DNA of 64,000 nt from Candidatus Altimarinota bacterium. Its GTDB lineage: Bacteria; Patescibacteriota; Gracilibacteria; UBA1369; GCA-2718715. The notes under the pieces are model-generated. The model ran no database searches. It had not been told where the DNA came from and saw only the letters and a list, made by a program, of their open reading frames with translations. The position numbers and the translations under genes were made by a program. This document shows, in pieces, positions 4,941 to 11,181 of the stretch. The stretch is from NCBI GenBank assembly GCA_041242255.1, contig JBESAV010000001.1:448001-512000 (forward strand), in the 5' to 3' direction. The number at the start of each line of letters is the position of its first letter. Position 1 is the first letter of the stretch.

Positions 4941-5809
4941 AATAATACATTGAAGTAACTTGTTGTATTAGCATAATGTCCAGTATATTCATAAGAATTA
5001 GTATAACCAATAATCTCTGGATCTTTTTTCATCAAGCGAGCAAGCTCAACTCCAATCAAAAGTGAAGGAGGGGAGTCTACATTATCAATTTTCAAATCTT
5101 CAACATCCATCGACATAATAGCCTCACGAGTCTCCTGATCATAAACACCCGCCTGATTTACAGTCCTGTAATGATTAAAATCAACACTGATCACAAACTT
5201 TGCTTCATCATAATATTTAGTCAGAAATTTTGCCAACTCACGACTTTCCTTGTTCCCAGCTGAAGAGGACACAGATATAGGAACTATCCTAGCTTCAGGA
5301 TTTGTCATTTTTATATAATCAGCTTGCACTCCAATAGAGTGTTCTTTTTCAAAACAACCAGGCTCCATATTCACAAACCCACTTTCAACCAATTCTTCAA
5401 CAATACTCGGCTCACTCTCTAACAATCCAAAATTAGTTTTATAATCATGGTCTCCAGTGCTGAAAACATCCTCACATTTTTCCGGATGGTCAGGTCCAAT
5501 TACAATAAAAAGATCATCTTCATCACTCAAAAATTGCTCATAAAACTCACCAACAAAATCAGCTGCCACAGGCAAATGATGCGAGGTTATACCAATTCTA
5601 CTTGTTGATTCTTCTATGCTTTCTGGCCTACTAAAACTTCTCTCTATAGCCAGCTTATATTTAGAGTTATTACTATCTATCACTAGGTTTCCAACTTCAA
5701 TACTTTGAAGTGAACTTTCCTGAAAAGGGGAGTCCACTCCAGCGTAGCCCTGGCATCCAGCCAAGGCTACTAAACTAAGAATTAAGATACTAGGTTTATA
5801 GGTTTTCAT
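4934..5809 (-). CDS. MEMO1 / AmmeMemoRadiSam protein B-like lipoprotein
   Basis: Lipobox LAGC after a hydrophobic stretch; motifs SHH, IGPDH, EHSI and SVDFNHY; start overlaps the A2M stop (TAATG). Confidence 0.8.
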   Translation of the reverse strand: MKTYKPSILILSLVALAGCQGYAGVDSPFQESSLQSIEVGNLVIDSNNSKYKLAIERSFSRPESIEESTSRIGITSHHLPVAADFVGEFYEQFLSDEDDLFIVIGPDHPEKCEDVFSTGDHDYKTNFGLLESEPSIVEELVESGFVNMEPGCFEKEHSIGVQADYIKMTNPEARIVPISVSSSAGNKESRELAKFLTKYYDEAKFVISVDFNHYRTVNQAGVYDQETREAIMSMDVEDLKIDNVDSPPSLLIGVELARLMKKDPEIIGYTNSYEYTGHYANTTSYFNVLFQ

Positions 5810-8800
5810 TATCTGATAGTTATATTTCCATCTTCTCCTCTAGCCACATTATCAGCATCATACTCTTTGATTTGGGCACCTTGCACTTTAAATTCTCCAT
5901 CAGATACAACTCTAGCAAAGTAACTTATCTCACCATCATTACAGTTGTTATAACGCTCTAAAGAGTAACTAGATCGACTGAAAGTAATCACATTCCCAAC
6001 ACTCTTACCTCCATACCAATTATAACTACATGTCTCACTATTAAATTGATACCTAGTCACATTATTTATCACTGGTCTTAATCCAGAAGGTAAATAATCA
6101 ATAATCTGGTAATTCTTATATTCATCTTCATTGTAAATAGAGTCTTCAATATCTATCACAACTCGAACCAAGTCACCACTTTCAAACTGACTCGTTTCTA
6201 CTCCATCCACAAGATACCTCTTACTTATACTTAGATTTTGACTATTCCCAGCTAGGTCACCACTTTCTCTATAGCTAGCTACAAGCATTACCTCTCCATC
6301 AATACTTTCAACTTCCAGAGCCTCAGCTTGAGCTTTAGTTATCTTCTCATATCTCGAGAATCCATCACTCAAGTCAAACTCCATAACCTCATCTCCAATC
6401 CTTAAACTAACCAAAGACTCAACCAACTCAACATTTGATATAACTTTTTCCATTGCCATCACACCAGCAATACCATACACAGAACCATCACTTTCAAATA
6501 CTTCCAAAGCCTCTCCATCTACAGGCAAACCAATTCTAGCTCTCAAAAGATTATTTAACTGAGTAAACTGACCCTCTACTAAGTCACTCGAGATAGAGTT
6601 GTTATACATCGCTCTAGCACCTTCTTTATCTCCCATCTTCTCAAGCCCAAGCGCTACATATATTTCACCAAGTTTAGTATTCTCAGAGCTTCTAGCTACT
6701 TCTTTAAGTTCAGCCAAAACATTTTCTCCCAAACTTGCTAATCCATATAAGGCAATAGAGGTTCTCTCAATGTCTGCAGTCTTGTTAACCATCTGCTCTC
6801 TTAGATAACTAGAAGTCTTAGCTTTCAAAATATCATCCCCAAGAATATCAGAGACTAAAGCTGTTAATTCCAGGTCAGCATCACCATAAGTAAACAACGC
6901 CAATCCATTATTATCAGGCACATAGTAATCATTCAGATTCAAATCAATTTTTTCAGGTTCATTATTCCCAAACTGTTCACTCATCAAATCAACAATGTAG
7001 TTTCTTGTTACAATCTGATCCAACCTATTATTCACAACATAAAGTCCAGATCTCAACTCAGGTAAAAATTTACCTTTCCCAACTGTAGCTAATTCTAGAT
7101 CAACCATTCCCTCAGCAGGAACCTCTAGTCCAACTGCTCCAGTACTATCAATCAACACATCCTCAAATGCTAATCTTTGACCATATGATTCAATCACCTC
7201 AAAAGGCAATACCAATGTGTCAGCATTATCTCCCTGTCTTACAGTCAACTTAGCTTCGTGTATCCCAAGTTGAAGTTCTTCGATCTGGAAACCATAAGAA
7301 GTTTCACTACTAGTAACCTCTTCCAAAATCCCTAGCGATTCAATTTCCAAAACATAATCAATCTCATCTCCAATCACCAAGTCCTCCCCATAAGCTCTGA
7401 TCTCCATAACTGGTTTATCCTCTAGCAGGTAAGTGTCATTAATACTCGTTGCAGCAAACACAGGCAAGCTAACAGGCACTTTTATGTTATCTTGCCCAGC
7501 CAAAATTCTTTCATTTTCAAATGCCTTTGCTGAGATCCTCCATGAAGTTAAGTTATCAGGAAGATCAAAGAAAGCAGTTGCACTACCACCAGCATTTGTT
7601 TCGAAAGTATCAAACAAGCTTACATCTTTAAACTCAGATCTTTCAGCTCCACCTTTCTCAGCATTATGTACATAAATCCCATCCGCAAAGTATGTATGGG
7701 TTTTATCTACATTCAAGTTATACACTCTAGTTGCAGGCTTATTTACATATTCAATTTTTTCAATCCTAACAATCTCTCCATTTTCTCCAATCAATTCATC
7801 TCCAACCTCAGCCATCCCAGCCAATCTCCATTTTCCATTTAAGAAGATTTCATGTTCACCTGTTACTTCCAGCTCATCATTAATAATCATGTAACCATCT
7901 ACCAAATAGCTATGAACACCTTGCACAGTTACAATCTTCTTATTACCAGAATTTTCATTAGCGAAGCTCAAGACTTGGTCTCCAACTCGAACCTCCTCAA
8001 TCGGTTTACTTTCACCATTCGACATTAATACCATTGTCCCAGGTAAGAAACATCCTCCTTGCTCAGCACCAGCATCCATATTAGCCGCTTCAAGGCGTTC
8101 ATTTTTATTTGCCCCACTTTGCGGACTATCAATATTATCAATGTACAAAGTACTTAATATATCTTTCTCATACTCATAAGGTAAAACATGGAATAATGCC
8201 TCATCCACAGAAGCCAGGTTAACTTCAGCCTTTACCGGATCACCATTCACATCAGTTACTTCCATCTCAATCTCAACTCTTTCTCCAGGTCTATATCTAT
8301 CCTTGTCTGTTTGCATGTTTATGGAAAGCTCACTTTGCAATTCATCATACGAAGCAATCACTCTATTTGTATCCTCAAATCCAGTCTCAGTCAAAACAAC
8401 AGCCTGGTAAGCAAACCCAGGAATAAACTCTTCTTTAAATACTTTCGATACATTCTCCGAAGGAGTAACCTCAAAATCATCTATTGCAGTCTGGTACCCA
8501 TAGTATAAGTACTCCTCAGATTGTAGAGTCTTCTCTTCTGGAACATCCAATTCAAGCTCAAACTCTTCGCCTATTTTCAATTCAGGCTCCTGAGATCTAC
8601 TATTCAAGCTCAAAGTGATCCTTGAATCATCATAGAAACCAAAAGATCTATATCCTATATAGTTTTTAGTTTCAAAATTCACACCTCTGTCATCAGTCGA
8701 ACTTAAGATCACATAGTAAGAAGTATATAGATCTTTCTGTTGTTCAGTTGGCTCAAAGGTAAACTCAAATTCACCCTCACCATTTGTAACACCTTGCTTA

Positions 8801-11181
8801 GAGGTTAAAAAGTTTTCTCTGAACTCATACCTATATTGTTGCTGAGAAGTTTTCGAAACAGGATCATAGTAAAACCCATCTTCTATTTTTTCATAATAAG
8901 TTCCATAAATAGTTGCAGTCACACCTTTTCCAGTATCTGGATCACCGATGAACTCACTTCTGTAATAACCCCTCGAATCAGAGGTGGCATTTGCTAGGTT
9001 AACTTCATTAAGTTTTGCAGTGAGATTATATAAATCATCATCACTAGAAACATCATTTATTAATTGCATATAAACATCTTCCTCAAACACCAAAACTTCA
9101 GTCTGTGCACTTATCTCTCCTTGTTCAGGACTACCAGTTCTAAGGTAAATATTTCTAGAGTTTGGTCCATAACTAAATTCATCATCAGATCTATATGCAG
9201 TCGCACTGATAACTCCTTGTCCGTTCTCATCTAACTGCAGAGTGCTTTCTGAATTGTTGTAGTAATTTTGAGAAATATAATCACTGTACTGAACTTCTAG
9301 ATTTGGCACAGGTGTTCCATCAAAGAACTTAGCCTCAACCTCAATATCAACTGTTTCACCAGCAAACATGGAGTCTCGACTAGGAGTAGCAATCAACTGG
9401 TAAGCCGGCGTCTCAAAATCAACAATCTGCAAGCTCGAAGTAGAAATCACTTCATCATCTTTCTCTACTTGTAGTGTGTAGTAACCCGGTTCAATACCCT
9501 CAAAACTCAAAGATCCTTTAATCGTATCAAAGCTACTCACAACCGCCGTAGAAGAGGCAAGTTTATTATCATCCCAGTAACCATAGTAGTAGTAACTTCC
9601 ACCAGTCAAACTAACAGTTACTTTATCATTTTTTAGATCATCCTCTCGACCTTTAACCACTCCCCAAAAGTTTATCTCATCCGTAGGCCTATAAACATAA
9701 CGATCACTACTCAAGAAATTCCAATATCTATCAGCTTTAGGATAATAAAAACCATACCAGTTTGAATCTTCCATCATACTCAAATATGTTTCACCATTCC
9801 ATTCAACCATAAACGAACTAGGCCTATTATCTCCCATACCTTCAGATCTTTCTTTAAGGTAATCAGGCGCATTGTAATTCAATAATCCTTTCTCATTAGT
9901 TCGACCAAGGTCAGTAGTCTCACCACCTCCGATCAAACTAACATCAGCTCCATCCAAGAAAGATCCATTCTCAAAATCATACAACCATAATAACCCCGTT
10001 TCACTTGTATAAGTGTAGTAGTGGGCTAGGGGAGAAACCTGGAACCAAACAATCGACCTATCTCCATTATTACTATTTTCAATCTCAATTGCATATGTCC
10101 CAGTTTCCAGCTCATCTGCTAGATAAAGCACTCTTGAGTAATTTTGCTCAACAATCTCCGGCGAAACCTCATATAGTTTTGTAGCTTTCTCCAAACTCAA
10201 CTCATCATCAAAACTATTTTTATAAATTGAAGTCCAGTACCAGTTCCAATTCTTACTCTGACCATACTCTTCCATAAAGTCCTCAGTCGATTCGTATCTA
10301 TAAATACTTGTCGTATAATCTTCGTTAAATCCTTCTGTATCTAGCTCAGTATAACCAATACTAAAGAACTTATCTCCTCCTGGGAAAAAGCTTTCGTAAT
10401 CACTCCAGAAATTGATACCTCTTTCATTATAAGCCTCTGAAGATGTTTCAAATGTAAACACAAAGTCCTCTCCAAAGCTAGAATCTCTCTCATCAAACAA
10501 AGCTTGATCAACCGTCACAGTGTAAACTGTACCTTCTTGCATCCCAGCATGCACCAAAACTAGTTTCTCATCTTCTACTCGCACATCATAGTCCAAACTA
10601 GGCTCCACACTCACAAAACTAGCATCACCTTCAGTAACATCTTCGTTAAATTCAATCTCTATCGAAGAATCAATTGGCACATACGTCCCTCTGTTTCTTG
10701 GTAAACTAGATATCACCTGAAAGTCAGCTTCCACAGCAAAAGCCCAAGAATAATCTCTATTAGACTCTATGTTTGCCACCAAAAGCTCACCTTTAGGCAG
10801 CTCAACACTCGGAGTTAGAGTATATGAGTAGGTAGCATTACTATTTAGCTCTGCCCCCTGTGCTTTAGCTTGAGGAATCATACTCAGTATTCCACCTTGC
10901 TTCTCAACTTTAAACTCAATTTCAGGCTCAAAACTCACCAACTCTCTCACATCACTCTCAGATAATTCAACCTTACTATCCAGTGTGAAAGAAGATCCAG
11001 CTTTAGTCACAAAGTCTTCAAAAGTATCATTAGCTCTCAAGCTAAACAAAGTTTCTTCATCACTTTTATCAAAGTCATTAATCCCACTATCAAAAAGCAA
11101 ATCTCTGTACATAAAACCAACACCCACCAAAAGAATCACCAATAGGGAAGTCACTATTGGTAGAATAAATTTCTTATTCAT
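5809..11181 (-). CDS. alpha-2-macroglobulin family protein (Ig-like + MG2 + bait-region + A2M domains) with an internal Hint domain
   Basis: N-terminal TM; MG2 motif SDRYVYRPTDEINFWG; TDKDRYRPGE and LASVDEALF; FDLPDNLTSWRISA; C-terminal GDLVRV...IDYLPSGLRP. Confidence 0.9.
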   Translation of the reverse strand: MNKKFILPIVTSLLVILLVGVGFMYRDLLFDSGINDFDKSDEETLFSLRANDTFEDFVTKAGSSFTLDSKVELSESDVRELVSFEPEIEFKVEKQGGILSMIPQAKAQGAELNSNATYSYTLTPSVELPKGELLVANIESNRDYSWAFAVEADFQVISSLPRNRGTYVPIDSSIEIEFNEDVTEGDASFVSVEPSLDYDVRVEDEKLVLVHAGMQEGTVYTVTVDQALFDERDSSFGEDFVFTFETSSEAYNERGINFWSDYESFFPGGDKFFSIGYTELDTEGFNEDYTTSIYRYESTEDFMEEYGQSKNWNWYWTSIYKNSFDDELSLEKATKLYEVSPEIVEQNYSRVLYLADELETGTYAIEIENSNNGDRSIVWFQVSPLAHYYTYTSETGLLWLYDFENGSFLDGADVSLIGGGETTDLGRTNEKGLLNYNAPDYLKERSEGMGDNRPSSFMVEWNGETYLSMMEDSNWYGFYYPKADRYWNFLSSDRYVYRPTDEINFWGVVKGREDDLKNDKVTVSLTGGSYYYYGYWDDNKLASSTAVVSSFDTIKGSLSFEGIEPGYYTLQVEKDDEVISTSSLQIVDFETPAYQLIATPSRDSMFAGETVDIEVEAKFFDGTPVPNLEVQYSDYISQNYYNNSESTLQLDENGQGVISATAYRSDDEFSYGPNSRNIYLRTGSPEQGEISAQTEVLVFEEDVYMQLINDVSSDDDLYNLTAKLNEVNLANATSDSRGYYRSEFIGDPDTGKGVTATIYGTYYEKIEDGFYYDPVSKTSQQQYRYEFRENFLTSKQGVTNGEGEFEFTFEPTEQQKDLYTSYYVILSSTDDRGVNFETKNYIGYRSFGFYDDSRITLSLNSRSQEPELKIGEEFELELDVPEEKTLQSEEYLYYGYQTAIDDFEVTPSENVSKVFKEEFIPGFAYQAVVLTETGFEDTNRVIASYDELQSELSINMQTDKDRYRPGERVEIEMEVTDVNGDPVKAEVNLASVDEALFHVLPYEYEKDILSTLYIDNIDSPQSGANKNERLEAANMDAGAEQGGCFLPGTMVLMSNGESKPIEEVRVGDQVLSFANENSGNKKIVTVQGVHSYLVDGYMIINDELEVTGEHEIFLNGKWRLAGMAEVGDELIGENGEIVRIEKIEYVNKPATRVYNLNVDKTHTYFADGIYVHNAEKGGAERSEFKDVSLFDTFETNAGGSATAFFDLPDNLTSWRISAKAFENERILAGQDNIKVPVSLPVFAATSINDTYLLEDKPVMEIRAYGEDLVIGDEIDYVLEIESLGILEEVTSSETSYGFQIEELQLGIHEAKLTVRQGDNADTLVLPFEVIESYGQRLAFEDVLIDSTGAVGLEVPAEGMVDLELATVGKGKFLPELRSGLYVVNNRLDQIVTRNYIVDLMSEQFGNNEPEKIDLNLNDYYVPDNNGLALFTYGDADLELTALVSDILGDDILKAKTSSYLREQMVNKTADIERTSIALYGLASLGENVLAELKEVARSSENTKLGEIYVALGLEKMGDKEGARAMYNNSISSDLVEGQFTQLNNLLRARIGLPVDGEALEVFESDGSVYGIAGVMAMEKVISNVELVESLVSLRIGDEVMEFDLSDGFSRYEKITKAQAEALEVESIDGEVMLVASYRESGDLAGNSQNLSISKRYLVDGVETSQFESGDLVRVVIDIEDSIYNEDEYKNYQIIDYLPSGLRPVINNVTRYQFNSETCSYNWYGGKSVGNVITFSRSSYSLERYNNCNDGEISYFARVVSDGEFKVQGAQIKEYDADNVARGEDGNITIR
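7663..8052 (-). other. Hint (bacterial intein-like) domain, 130 aa, residues 1044-1173 of the A2M
   Basis: Block A CFLPGTMV, block B VTGEH, block F VYNLNVDKTHTYFADG, block G VHN; the +1 residue is Ala; no endonuclease domain. Confidence 0.93.

Follow-up and report, generated by a model that had tools for sequence, protein, structure and literature searches.

Activation of complement C3, A2M and their relatives depends on the cutting of a single loop, which, to our knowledge, is always done by another enzyme. In a CPR-type genome of about 1 Mb, from a Candidatus Altimarinota bacterium, a predicted self-cutting Hint domain sits in exactly that activating loop of an A2M-family protein of 1790 aa, and the canonical CxEQ thioester motif is missing from the same protein, which raises the question of what the Hint does there. 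A sequence-only reading of the window (the whole stretch of DNA analysed, 64,000 nucleotides) had proposed that Hint Cys1 supplies a substitute for the lost thioester. Our searches of open-access literature, judged partly by titles and the openings of abstracts, found no description of an intein, Hint or BIL domain in an A2M.

Membership of the A2M family was supported in agreement by Pfam domains and by a family profile. Pfam matches were obtained for Big_5, A2M_BRD, PT-HINT, A2M and bMG10 (Table 1); A2M_BRD, A2M (PF00207) and bMG10 lie above their cut-offs and provide the MG array and bait-region domain, and MG2 scores under the Pfam cut-off. The family profile matched E. coli ECAM (YfhM) at E 3e-74 and Salmonella SaA2M at E 1e-64, and a PDB search with the protein as a single sequence brought up no A2M chain with an E value of 0.01 or less. 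For the C-terminal 616 aa, an AF2 model (pLDDT 81.2) places helices at model residues 193-408; in Foldseek it matched native ECAM, SaA2M, C5, C3 and TEP1 with E values from 1e-24 to 1e-19, and TM is 0.55-0.56 for native ECAM and SaA2M. The C-terminal half is thus predicted to adopt an MG-CUB-TED-MG10 fold resembling that of these two proteins. The N-terminal membrane anchor proposed earlier was also recovered, as a hydrophobic segment predicted to be either a signal peptide or a signal anchor; of all 19-aa windows scored by Kyte-Doolittle, the one from residue 5 has the highest mean (2.68). A lipobox Cys is absent, with no Cys upstream of residue 1044 in a whole-protein scan. The thioester-bearing ECAM and SaA2M resemble this protein in their multi-MG, BRD, CUB, TED and C-terminal MG domains, in being tethered to the membrane and in the place of the bait loop, whereas here CLEQ is replaced by RLDQ, the bait loop holds a 130-aa BIL domain, neither the lipobox Cys nor an adjacent pbpC is found, and sequence identity to them is low.

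Table 1. Features of the A2M-family gene and its product, with coordinates in the window (residue numbers in brackets)
Feature	Position	Strand	Basis
Whole gene, 1790-aa A2M-family protein (P0001)	5809..11181	minus	ORF list and translation, Pfam, family profile
N-terminal hydrophobic segment (about 5-25)	11107..11169	minus	Predicted signal anchor or signal peptide
Bacterial Ig-like domain Big_5 (154-246)	10444..10722	minus	Pfam E 8.8e-09
A2M bait-region domain PF07703 (864-997)	8191..8592	minus	Pfam E 1.9e-07, 31.9 bits vs cut-off 22.7
N-flank GAEQGG (1038-1043), ending in Gly1043	8053..8070	minus	Alignment
Hint/BIL domain, Cys1044-Asn1173, 130 aa	7663..8052	minus	Pfam PT-HINT, AF2, Foldseek
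Block-B-like TGEH (1107-1110) within the Hint	7852..7863	minus	T-x-x-H conservation
C-flank AEKGG (1174-1178); +1 Ala non-nucleophilic, Lys1176 conserved	7648..7662	minus	
A2M domain PF00207 (1189-1243), MG domain after the bait loop	7453..7617	minus	Pfam E 5.4e-05, 23.4 bits vs cut-off 21
Helical TED equivalent (about 1367-1582)	6436..7083	minus	AF2 helices, Foldseek
RLDQ (1386-1389) at the CxEQ thioester position	7015..7026	minus	Alignment
C-terminal MG10 domain PF17973 (1662-1773), with Cys1718 and Cys1747	5863..6198	minus	Pfam E 1.7e-06

The loss of the thioester was confirmed down to the bases. A full-sequence scan of the 1790 aa found Cys at residues 1044, 1718 and 1747 only and C-x-E-Q nowhere, and the RLDQ that had been noted near residue 1386 of this three-Cys protein is encoded exactly at bases 7026..7015. 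In a 57-sequence alignment, RLDQ shares its column with the CVEQ, CMEQ, CAEQ, CTEQ or CIEQ of 12 thioester-bearing rows, and it aligns with CLEQ (Cys1187) of ECAM. Arg1386 (residue 212 of the AF2 model) directly precedes a helix at 213-230, close to the N-terminal side of the helical TED region. On alignment evidence, RLDQ marks the true homologous position of CxEQ and not a chance look-alike; the earlier reading of an A2M-family protein that has lost its canonical thioester is upheld. Across the thioester-less clade, R-x-D-Q is kept with Arg in 169/169 members, Asp in 162/169 and Gln in 127/169. Not every member of the A2M superfamily has CxEQ: complement C5 lacks it (PMC9352918), and P. aeruginosa MagD is likewise described as devoid of the CxEQ Cys (PMC3735191). 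MagD resembles the present protein in having kept the A2M fold without this Cys, whereas the tree places the origin of the thioester-less state here within a distinct CPR clade that has an R-x-D-Q of its own; the MagD passages of PMC3735191 mention no Hint.

The inserted domain was matched by Pfam PT-HINT over residues 1058-1174 (E 1.6e-13; 51.5 bits, cut-off 27.7) and by NCBIfam intein_Cterm (23.2 bits, cut-off 15.6), and the family profile picked up 2lwy, a BIL domain of solved structure, with E 1.6e-18. AF2 modelled the Hint with pLDDT 84.1 between disordered flanks with pLDDT below 50. The best Foldseek match of this model was the BIL2 domain 6y75 (E 5.8e-12, TM 0.80; 6tmm is likewise BIL2), and the C. 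thermocellum BIL 2lwy was matched at E 2.4e-10 with an rmsd of 1.8. The leading matches were BIL domains (TM 0.76-0.80), followed by mini-inteins, and Hedgehog reached only ranks 22 and 27. In the single-sequence search of the PDB, Tetrahymena BIL2 came first (E 7e-4). Among 237 full-length Hints, whose mean pairwise identity is about 44%, Cys1 and the terminal His-Asn (here His1172-Asn1173) are invariant (237/237 each), and T-x-x-H occurs in the block-B zone of 235. A C-terminal His-Asn is part of the type A BIL definition (PMC4031507). We accordingly read the domain as a type-A bacterial intein-like (BIL) domain, predicted from these residues to be catalytically intact. The expectation that it keeps everything needed for a thioester between Gly1043 (bases 8055..8053) and Cys1044 (bases 8052..8050) proved right, with Cys1, block B and the flanking Gly all in place; Gly-Gly occupies positions -2/-1 in 104/115 and 118/120 Hint-bearing proteins of two sets.

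Other classes of Hint fit less well. Without a Cys, Ser or Thr after it, the Hint of this protein cannot splice as a canonical intein does; the +1 residue, mostly Asp, Ala, Glu or Gln across the family, is Ala1174 here, Ser in 6/237 Hints and Cys or Thr in 0/237, which rules out a canonical (class 1) intein. A Lys lies within +1 to +4 of the Hint end in 237/237 (here Lys1176); the Lys-Hint association runs in the same direction in 4.2 of 10 pairs and in the opposite direction in none, which is not significant when relatedness is taken into account (p 0.125); that Lys1176 is a nucleophile linked to the Hint is no more than suggested. Hedgehog is not known to have the His-Asn and carries a sterol-recognition extension. 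The HINT fold and a Cys1 thioester resolved by a nucleophile are common to Hedgehog/Hog and the present domain, whereas the latter ends in His-Asn with no sterol-recognition extension; with the His-Asn invariant, no recognition region and a lower fold rank, transfer of the Hedgehog/Hog type is not favoured. PT-HINT (PF07591) of polymorphic toxins is the best Pfam family for the domain, above its cut-off, but the part that follows the Hint is the MG-CUB-TED-MG10 half and not a toxin module, and a polymorphic toxin is ruled out. One Rhs-like protein with PT-HINT (P0056) occurred among the matches. Closest in kind are the type A BILs such as C. thermocellum BIL (2lwy), which share the HINT fold, Cys1, His-Asn, the lack of a +1 nucleophile and a secreted or surface host; the present domain differs in its A2M-family host, in its place in the bait loop and perhaps in its invariant Lys at +2/+3.

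The position of the insertion is constant. In 40/40 Hint-bearing rows the domain occupies identical alignment columns between GAExGG and xEKGG..R..F.D, after Pfam A2M_BRD and before PF00207, with the A2M R..F.D motif within 8 residues of its end. By alignment, the site lies between ECAM residues of about 930 and 955, where flank AEKGG is set weakly against ECAM ELKRGG in a low-complexity loop. The disordered bait of ECAM is given as Arg923-Leu942, and Phe947-Asn963 re-docks after cleavage (PMC4498604). The Hint end falls 5 profile positions ahead of human A2M residue 730; the human bait is given as P690-T728 and can be replaced by GGS repeats (PMC9352918). As judged from these alignments, the insertion site never varies and is the Gly-rich bait (activation) loop. 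Hint-free relatives also carry GAExGG, so the Gly-Gly belongs to the host loop, and their empty sites are clean (GAEKGG-GGGG). The C-flank AEKGG is a direct repeat of AEQGG in the N-flank, and 13/15 bases of the DNA repeat are identical (by eye).

If the Hint were a substitute for the lost thioester, its presence should track the loss of CxEQ, which it does not. Among 321 homologues, a seeded, non-random sample drawn from the best 58, 150, 120 and 120 matches of searches, three of them seeded with P0001 or P0045 (totals found were 1184, 1100 and 3028), 124 carry the Hint and CxEQ, 116 the Hint and RxDQ, 68 RxDQ without a Hint and 13 CxEQ without a Hint; 61/68 of the Hint-free RxDQ homologues span the insertion site. 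On a tree of 180 proteins, CxEQ is lost in a single change, against a minimum of 17 changes in Hint presence, of which well-supported branches force 9-10; CxEQ status differs in 0/10 phylogenetically independent Hint contrasts. The correlation between Hint presence and CxEQ loss anticipated by the sequence-only reading is thus absent, homologues being CxEQ-less without any Hint, and the claim that the Hint stands in for the thioester falls with it, as all four combinations occur and none of the contrasts links the two traits. Compensation is rejected by the 124 homologues that keep both and by the 68 that have neither. In this sample the two traits evolved independently; the CxEQ loss is placed by the tree as a separate, single and older event for which the Hint does not compensate, and the idea of the Hint replacing a lost thioester can be set aside.

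The Hint itself has a patchy history. It is about 45% identical between two deeply diverged A2M clades whose hosts share 17-18% identity; Hint and host identities correlate weakly in pairwise comparison (r 0.43), and in a Hint phylogeny of 129 columns, built to tell vertical descent from lateral transfer between the RxDQ and CxEQ clades, no branch with local support of at least 95 sets the P0045 and P0047 Hints apart. Its composition is not different from the rest of the gene (GC 0.364 against 0.376 for the host gene). Judged by repeated loss or gain with clean empty sites, the Hint is dispensable for the A2M scaffold, which is as compatible with a neutral passenger that splices itself out as with a trigger that has a function. 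It is kept with its catalytic residues in hundreds of CPR protein clusters, with or without the thioester. The present genome holds one PF00207 and one PF07591 match, both in the 1790-aa gene, and hence no second A2M or Hint. The eight neighbouring ORFs comprise DUF4012, Memo-like, MiaB-like rSAM, LeuRS and AlaRS families and three without a Pfam match; no mag-type partner is apparent among them by Pfam matches, nor is a six-gene mag-type operon. The short 1.5-kb flanks of 11 relatives' loci contain no Memo-like or MiaB-like neighbour that would mark a conserved operon partner.

Taken together, the protein is best seen as a membrane-anchored, thioester-less A2M with a BIL domain in its bait loop, whose autocatalytic excision probably cuts or partly re-ligates that loop. 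We infer the processing and its products from the conserved residues and the behaviour of other BILs. After export the BIL would fold, and Cys1044 would undergo an N-S acyl shift onto Gly1043, aided by the block-B Thr and His, so that the Gly1043 carbonyl would enter the thioester. Cyclisation of Asn1173 would break the Asn1173-Ala1174 bond, and the 130-aa domain would excise itself. The invariant His-Asn, superfluous for Hedgehog-style transfer, points to such BIL-type excision. For the Gly1043 thioester the fate we favour, at a little under an even chance, is hydrolysis, which would leave two chains and a bait cut without a protease; alternatively, the new alpha-amine or Lys1176 would attack it and re-ligate the chain. 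A cut bait is the trigger of conformational change in A2M-family proteins. Bait cleavage drives this change even without a thioester (PMC9352918), and MagD shifts conformation when it is cut by elastase (PMC3735191). A constitutively self-cut bait would, on the other hand, seem a waste of a protease trap.

Chemistry of the kind first proposed for this protein, in which the Hint thioester at Gly1043 replaces CxEQ and ligates the anchored N-terminal 1043 aa to a protease or host surface molecule, has a basis in the conserved Cys1, block B and Gly-Gly at -2/-1, which lead one to expect a reactive thioester there. Attack by an outside nucleophile is also chemically possible, if unlikely, and nothing ties it to the loss of CxEQ; it has a precedent in the nearest structure and PDB sequence match, BIL2 of Tetrahymena BUBL (6y75, 6tmm), whose N-extein likewise ends in Gly-Gly. 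BIL2 forms an isopeptide bond between a Lys epsilon-amine and the N-extein C-terminus, ubl4 having been conjugated to ubl5 and a Ras GTPase (PMC8616854). By likeness to this transfer, a Lys-directed ligation is conceivable here, although BIL2 belongs to a eukaryotic polyubiquitin-like locus, has a ubiquitin-like N-extein, is reportedly Zn-activated and is 24-25% identical to the present Hint. The replacement reading nevertheless seems quite improbable: it is contradicted by the homologue counts and contrasts given above (68, 124 and 0/10), the Gly-Gly is a host-loop feature present in Hint-free relatives, a simple transfer would not call for the His-Asn (237/237), there is no adduct-recognition module downstream of the Hint, and the part ligated would be MG1-6 plus the BRD, whereas A2Ms attach their targets via the TED. 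That the Hint is an unreactive relic, a mere structural insert in the bait loop, is conceivable for any unassayed Hint and has nothing specific in its favour; with Cys1 and His-Asn in 237/237 and T-x-x-H in 235/237 at about 44% mean pairwise identity, and with a fold confidently predicted by AF2, it is scarcely credible.

A more serious contender, still rather unlikely, is a neutral or selfish passenger that splices out, by alpha-amine aminolysis or through a Lys1176 isopeptide, leaves a continuous A2M with an ordinary Gly-rich bait and adds nothing to its function. A scattered distribution, with 17 or more changes of state and clean sites where the Hint is missing, argues for it, as do the presence of one element at an identical position in two A2M clades that diverged deeply (Hints about 45%, hosts 17-18% identical), the direct repeats AExGG/AEKGG on both sides and the conservation of both junction chemistries, which a splicing element needs. 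Type A BILs can indeed splice (PMC4031507), and splicing by such a domain here would restore an ordinary bait. Against a passenger stand the absence of a homing endonuclease, the single Hint in the genome with a composition like that of its host gene (GC 0.364 against 0.376), and the predominance of cleavage products in the type A BILs studied (PMC4031507); moreover, an inert insert could decay in a bait that tolerates insertions, whereas 237/237 Hints retain their catalytic residues. The self-excising BIL, preferred above, would carry function if it served as a built-in, protease-independent trigger. Bait autocleavage would then activate CPR surface macroglobulins, the CxEQ-bearing sister clade (at least 124 members) would expose its TED thioester and tag the nearby surface, and the RxDQ protein would be a non-covalent derivative. 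This extended scenario is speculative, and we hold it to be unlikely as a whole.

If it were true, episymbiotic bacteria would possess a self-activating, complement-C3b-like attachment device. A Hint acting as trigger would be a new way to activate an ancient protein family and could also let episymbionts attach, covalently or through a conformational change; if it is only a passenger, it would be an unusually clear example of an intein-like element that has no endonuclease and has stayed at the same position in deeply separated lineages.

The A2M-family protein P0001 carries a Hint domain in the stretch between its Pfam A2M_BRD and PF00207 domains, as listed in the table below. A single strongly hydrophobic stretch without a lipobox Cys lies at the N-terminus (approximately residues 5-25). 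The only Cys residues are 1044, 1718 and 1747, and C-x-E-Q is absent from the whole protein; the coordinates and Cys counts of the sequence-only reading, checked on the translation, were exact.

Features of P0001 and its surroundings (window positions in nucleotides, protein positions in residues)
Feature	Position	Strand	Source
P0001 ORF, 1790 aa	5809..11181	-	ORF list, translation
Big_5	residues 154-246	-	Pfam
A2M bait-region domain (A2M_BRD)	residues 864-997	-	Pfam
Flank repeat AEQGG, before Hint	8053..8067	-	
Cys1044	8052..8050	-	translation
PT-HINT	residues 1058-1174	-	Pfam, E 1.6e-13, 51.5 bits (cut-off 27.7)
intein_Cterm	residues 1153-1173	-	NCBIfam
Flank repeat AEKGG, after Hint	7648..7662	-	
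A2M domain PF00207	residues 1189-1243	-	Pfam
RLDQ	residues 1386-1389, 7026..7015	-	translation
bMG10	residues 1662-1773	-	Pfam
C-terminal 616-aa model	5812..7659	-	
80-aa ORF	7433..7675	+	
Memo-like gene, 291 aa	4934..5809	-	PF01875

The Hint extends from Cys1044 to Asn1173 (130 aa), with TGEH at residues 1107-1110 and a His-Asn end followed by Ala1174. Its AF2 model, built from a 10-row alignment, reached a pLDDT of 84.1 over the domain, with disordered flanks. Foldseek ranked BIL2 of the Tetrahymena BUBL1 locus first (6y75/6tmm; E 5.8e-12, TM 0.80), followed by the C. thermocellum bacterial intein-like (BIL) domain 2lwy (E 2.4e-10, rmsd 1.8), which the family profile also matched (E 1.6e-18); mini-inteins scored more weakly (~5e-8 and worse), and Hedgehog appeared only at ranks 22 and 27. 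Among the matches listed, Cys1 and the terminal His-Asn were present in 237/237 full-length Hints of A2M-like homologues and T-x-x-H in 235/237, and the +1 residue was Cys or Thr in none and Ser in 6 of the 237. Type A BILs are described as having a C-terminal His-Asn, an N-terminal thioester and C-terminal cleavage via Asn cyclisation, and as able to ligate by aminolysis, though cleavage products dominate (PMC4031507). Judged by sequence and modelled fold, the P0001 Hint has every feature of a type A BIL and is predicted to be active.

In the 57-sequence alignment A1, the Hint occupied identical columns in all 40 Hint-bearing rows, between GAExGG and xEKGG..R..F.D, and Hint-free relatives ran straight through (e.g., GAEQGG-EGGG-ERRDF). 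With E. coli YfhM/ECAM (from NC_000913.3) added to A1, the equivalent site fell between ECAM residues ~930 and ~955. In ECAM, bait residues Arg923-Leu942 are lost upon elastase cleavage, after which Phe947-Asn963 orders, binds the C-terminal MG domain and displaces the thioester domain (TED) (PMC4498604). A PDB profile search gave the Hint profile positions 1010-1137, with position 1142 matching residue 730 of human A2M, whose bait is P690-T728 (PMC9352918). On the ECAM mapping and the human A2M profile alignment, the Hint is assigned to the C-terminal end of the bait (activation) loop; a residue-level pairing of AEKGG with ECAM ELKRGG, inside a low-complexity loop, is only hinted at. A direct repeat, identical by eye at 13/15 bases in DNA, brackets the Hint, and Hint-free relatives often carry one GAEKGG and then a Gly run. 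This repeat could explain clean Hint loss by recombination or slippage, or could be an insertion footprint. The 80-aa ORF opposite the A2M gene overlaps the C-terminal Hint junction and was treated as a chance frame.

RLDQ is the true thioester position of P0001, and the canonical CxEQ has been lost, as the sequence-only reading had claimed: in A1, RLDQ shares its column with the CVEQ/CMEQ/CAEQ/CTEQ/CIEQ of 12 thioester-bearing rows and with the CLEQ (Cys1187) of ECAM. Modelled with AF2 from the 12-row alignment A3 (pLDDT 81.2), the C-terminal 616 aa show a helical block at model residues 193-408, and Arg1386 (model residue 212) immediately precedes helix 213-230. Foldseek matched this model to native ECAM (5a42, 4ziu) and SaA2M (4u48) at TM 0.55-0.56, with a poorer fit to activated ECAM (TM 0.33) and C3b (~0.24); its being closer to native than to activated forms may merely mirror the predictor's training. 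Because RLDQ aligns with CxEQ and the model resembles native ECAM and SaA2M, we conclude that the TED scaffold is kept, with the thioester chemistry alone lost. MagD (PMC3735191) and complement C5 (PMC9352918) are other, established family members lacking the thioester. Across the thioester-less clade, among the matches listed, Arg is conserved in 169/169 proteins, Asp in 162/169 and Gln in 127/169. Judging from these sequences, the former motif is not degenerate there, R-x-D-Q having taken over, and the invariance of the Arg where the Cys used to be suggests that selection maintains it for a new role, perhaps as a salt bridge in place of the thioester ring.

Homologues were gathered with four queries: whole P0001 (best 58 proteins); its C-terminal 616 aa, compared with a set of 1.84 billion cluster representatives (best 150 of 1184, E <= 0.001); residues 700-1759 of P0045, a homologue with both Hint and CxEQ (best 120 of 1100); and the Hint-free P0045 residues 985-1759 (best 120 of 3028). 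With the Rhs-like P0056 excluded, 321 A2M-like proteins were classified by Hint HMM and aligned thioester column. Among these listed matches, 124 combined a Hint with CxEQ and 116 a Hint with Arg at the Cys column, and Hint-free proteins comprised 13 with CxEQ and 68 with Arg. Fragments occur among the Hint-free proteins that the first two queries supplied; the 180 proteins from these queries that span both insertion site and C-terminal region, again among the matches listed, gave 2, 108, 9 and 61 in the same order. Genomic DNA confirmed two Hint-free genes (loci L011 and L012), with a Hint in 9 of 11 relatives' loci.

A quick FastTree phylogeny of 628 C-terminal columns, which left out the Hint itself and carried long-branch warnings, united the RxDQ proteins among the matches listed in a single 169-row group, with support 100 on a branch of length 1.95, and therefore implies a single CxEQ change. 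Hint presence changed at least 17 times, 9-10 of these forced by starred branches, against a mean of 56 for shuffled labels. Basal RxDQ lineages are Hint-free if the tree is rooted on the Hint-free CxEQ rows, an assumption, these rows not being one clean side of any branch. CxEQ state differed in 0/10 phylogenetically independent pairs of unlike Hint state among the matches listed. The homologue sample is seeded and consists of best matches; all four classes exist in numbers regardless of sample, tree or root. The proposal that a Cys1044 thioester at Gly1043 compensates for the lost CxEQ thus fails: Hint-free homologues also lack CxEQ, the two traits are uncorrelated, and many proteins have both Hint and CxEQ. 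Many such proteins (P0045, P0047, P0198-P0315, P0318-P0321) belong to a large candidate-phyla-radiation (CPR) sister group of A2M-like proteins, with source names mostly Gottesman-, Davies-, Woyke- and Woesebacteria; they share the bait-loop Hint and keep CxEQ intact. Of the best 120 of 1100 matches to P0045 residues 700-1759, 120/120 combined Hint and CxEQ, and 91/120 had exactly two Cys in total; sister-group members P0316, P0317 and P0322 have no Hint.

What the domain is, where it sits and how well it is conserved are shown by the comparisons above, whereas its reaction is inferred: Cys1044 would attack the Gly1043 carbonyl (N-S acyl shift), cyclisation of Asn1173 would release Ala1174, and the Hint would then depart. 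As there is no +1 nucleophile, the Gly1043 thioester could have four fates. Hydrolysis, whose chances we put a little short of even, would cut the bait without a protease and leave two chains, one of 1043 aa anchored in the membrane and one of 617 aa. This would be biologically important because a bait cut is described as triggering a large conformational change across the A2M superfamily, thioester or not (PMC4498604, PMC3735191, PMC9352918). Attack by the new alpha-amine, that is, type-A BIL splicing, is rather improbable, and to a similar degree so is attack by the epsilon-amine of a conserved +2/+3 Lys (Lys1176). Such a Lys occurs in 237/237 Hint-bearing proteins among the matches listed; among the 180 site-spanning proteins listed, Lys lies in this stretch in 110/110 with and 27/70 without a Hint. 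Allowing for relatedness, of 10 pairs 4.2 went the same way, none the opposite way and 5.8 were unchanged (p 0.125). Capture of an outside nucleophile, the chemistry of the sequence-only reading, is less probable again, and other fates share what remains. Such capture has a precedent in BIL2, which matches the P0001 Hint best in both structure and sequence and for which Lys-epsilon-amine isopeptide formation is described, with a ubiquitin-like N-extein conjugated to ubl5 and a Ras GTPase (PMC8616854, section 2.4). However, the Gly-Gly before Cys1 belongs to the host loop, since Hint-free relatives carry it too; the invariant His-Asn would be superfluous for transfer; and Hint and thioester loss are not tied.

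Frequent, clean Hint loss and the known splicing of type A BILs speak against hydrolysis, and make a serious rival of the view that the Hint is a passenger restoring an ordinary Gly-rich bait by splicing, which we nevertheless consider unlikely. Human A2M is reported to function with a GGS-repeat bait after cleavage sites are put back (PMC9352918); the bait thus tolerates insertions, and an inert insert would be free to degenerate, but all copies among the matches listed retain their catalytic residues. A mere passenger also sits poorly with the lack of a homing endonuclease, the single Hint in the genome and a Hint composition matching that of the host gene.

The genome, one contig of 1,000,477 bp (98.5% complete), has one A2M gene and one Hint, with unrelated housekeeping genes as neighbours; in the short flanks (1.5 kb) scanned for 11 relatives, none of these neighbours adjoined the A2M gene. 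The start of the Memo-like gene coincides with the final base of the A2M stop codon, and because of this overlap the two are probably co-transcribed; none of the 11 relatives has a Memo-like homologue in the 1.5-kb flanks of its A2M gene. The window has ~37% GC and strongly negative GC skew throughout (-0.13 to -0.45, 4-kb bins), and 12 of the 18 listed ORFs >= 80 aa in its first 20 kb, including all long ones past 4.9 kb, are encoded on the minus strand. With the C-terminal 616-aa query, the A2M gene was patchy, in 0/9 same-family genomes and 20/51 same-order genomes of other families. Among the matches listed, the closest homologues (65-67% identity) come from metagenome assemblies, and source names are mostly CPR (Doudna-, Magasanik-, Dojka-, Gottesman-, Davies-, Woyke- and Woesebacteria). 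For a CPR predator, large A2M-domain membrane proteins have been reported as a possible defence against host proteases, in a passage that names no Hint (PMC8080830).

The A2M family and type-A BILs are each already known; their combination, with a type-A BIL fixed in the A2M bait loop and widespread in CPR bacteria, appears to be new, since the full text of open-access papers yielded no description of a BIL or Hint in an A2M bait loop. If hydrolysis is indeed the fate of the Gly1043 thioester, members of the CxEQ-bearing sister clade would be thioester proteins that activate themselves.
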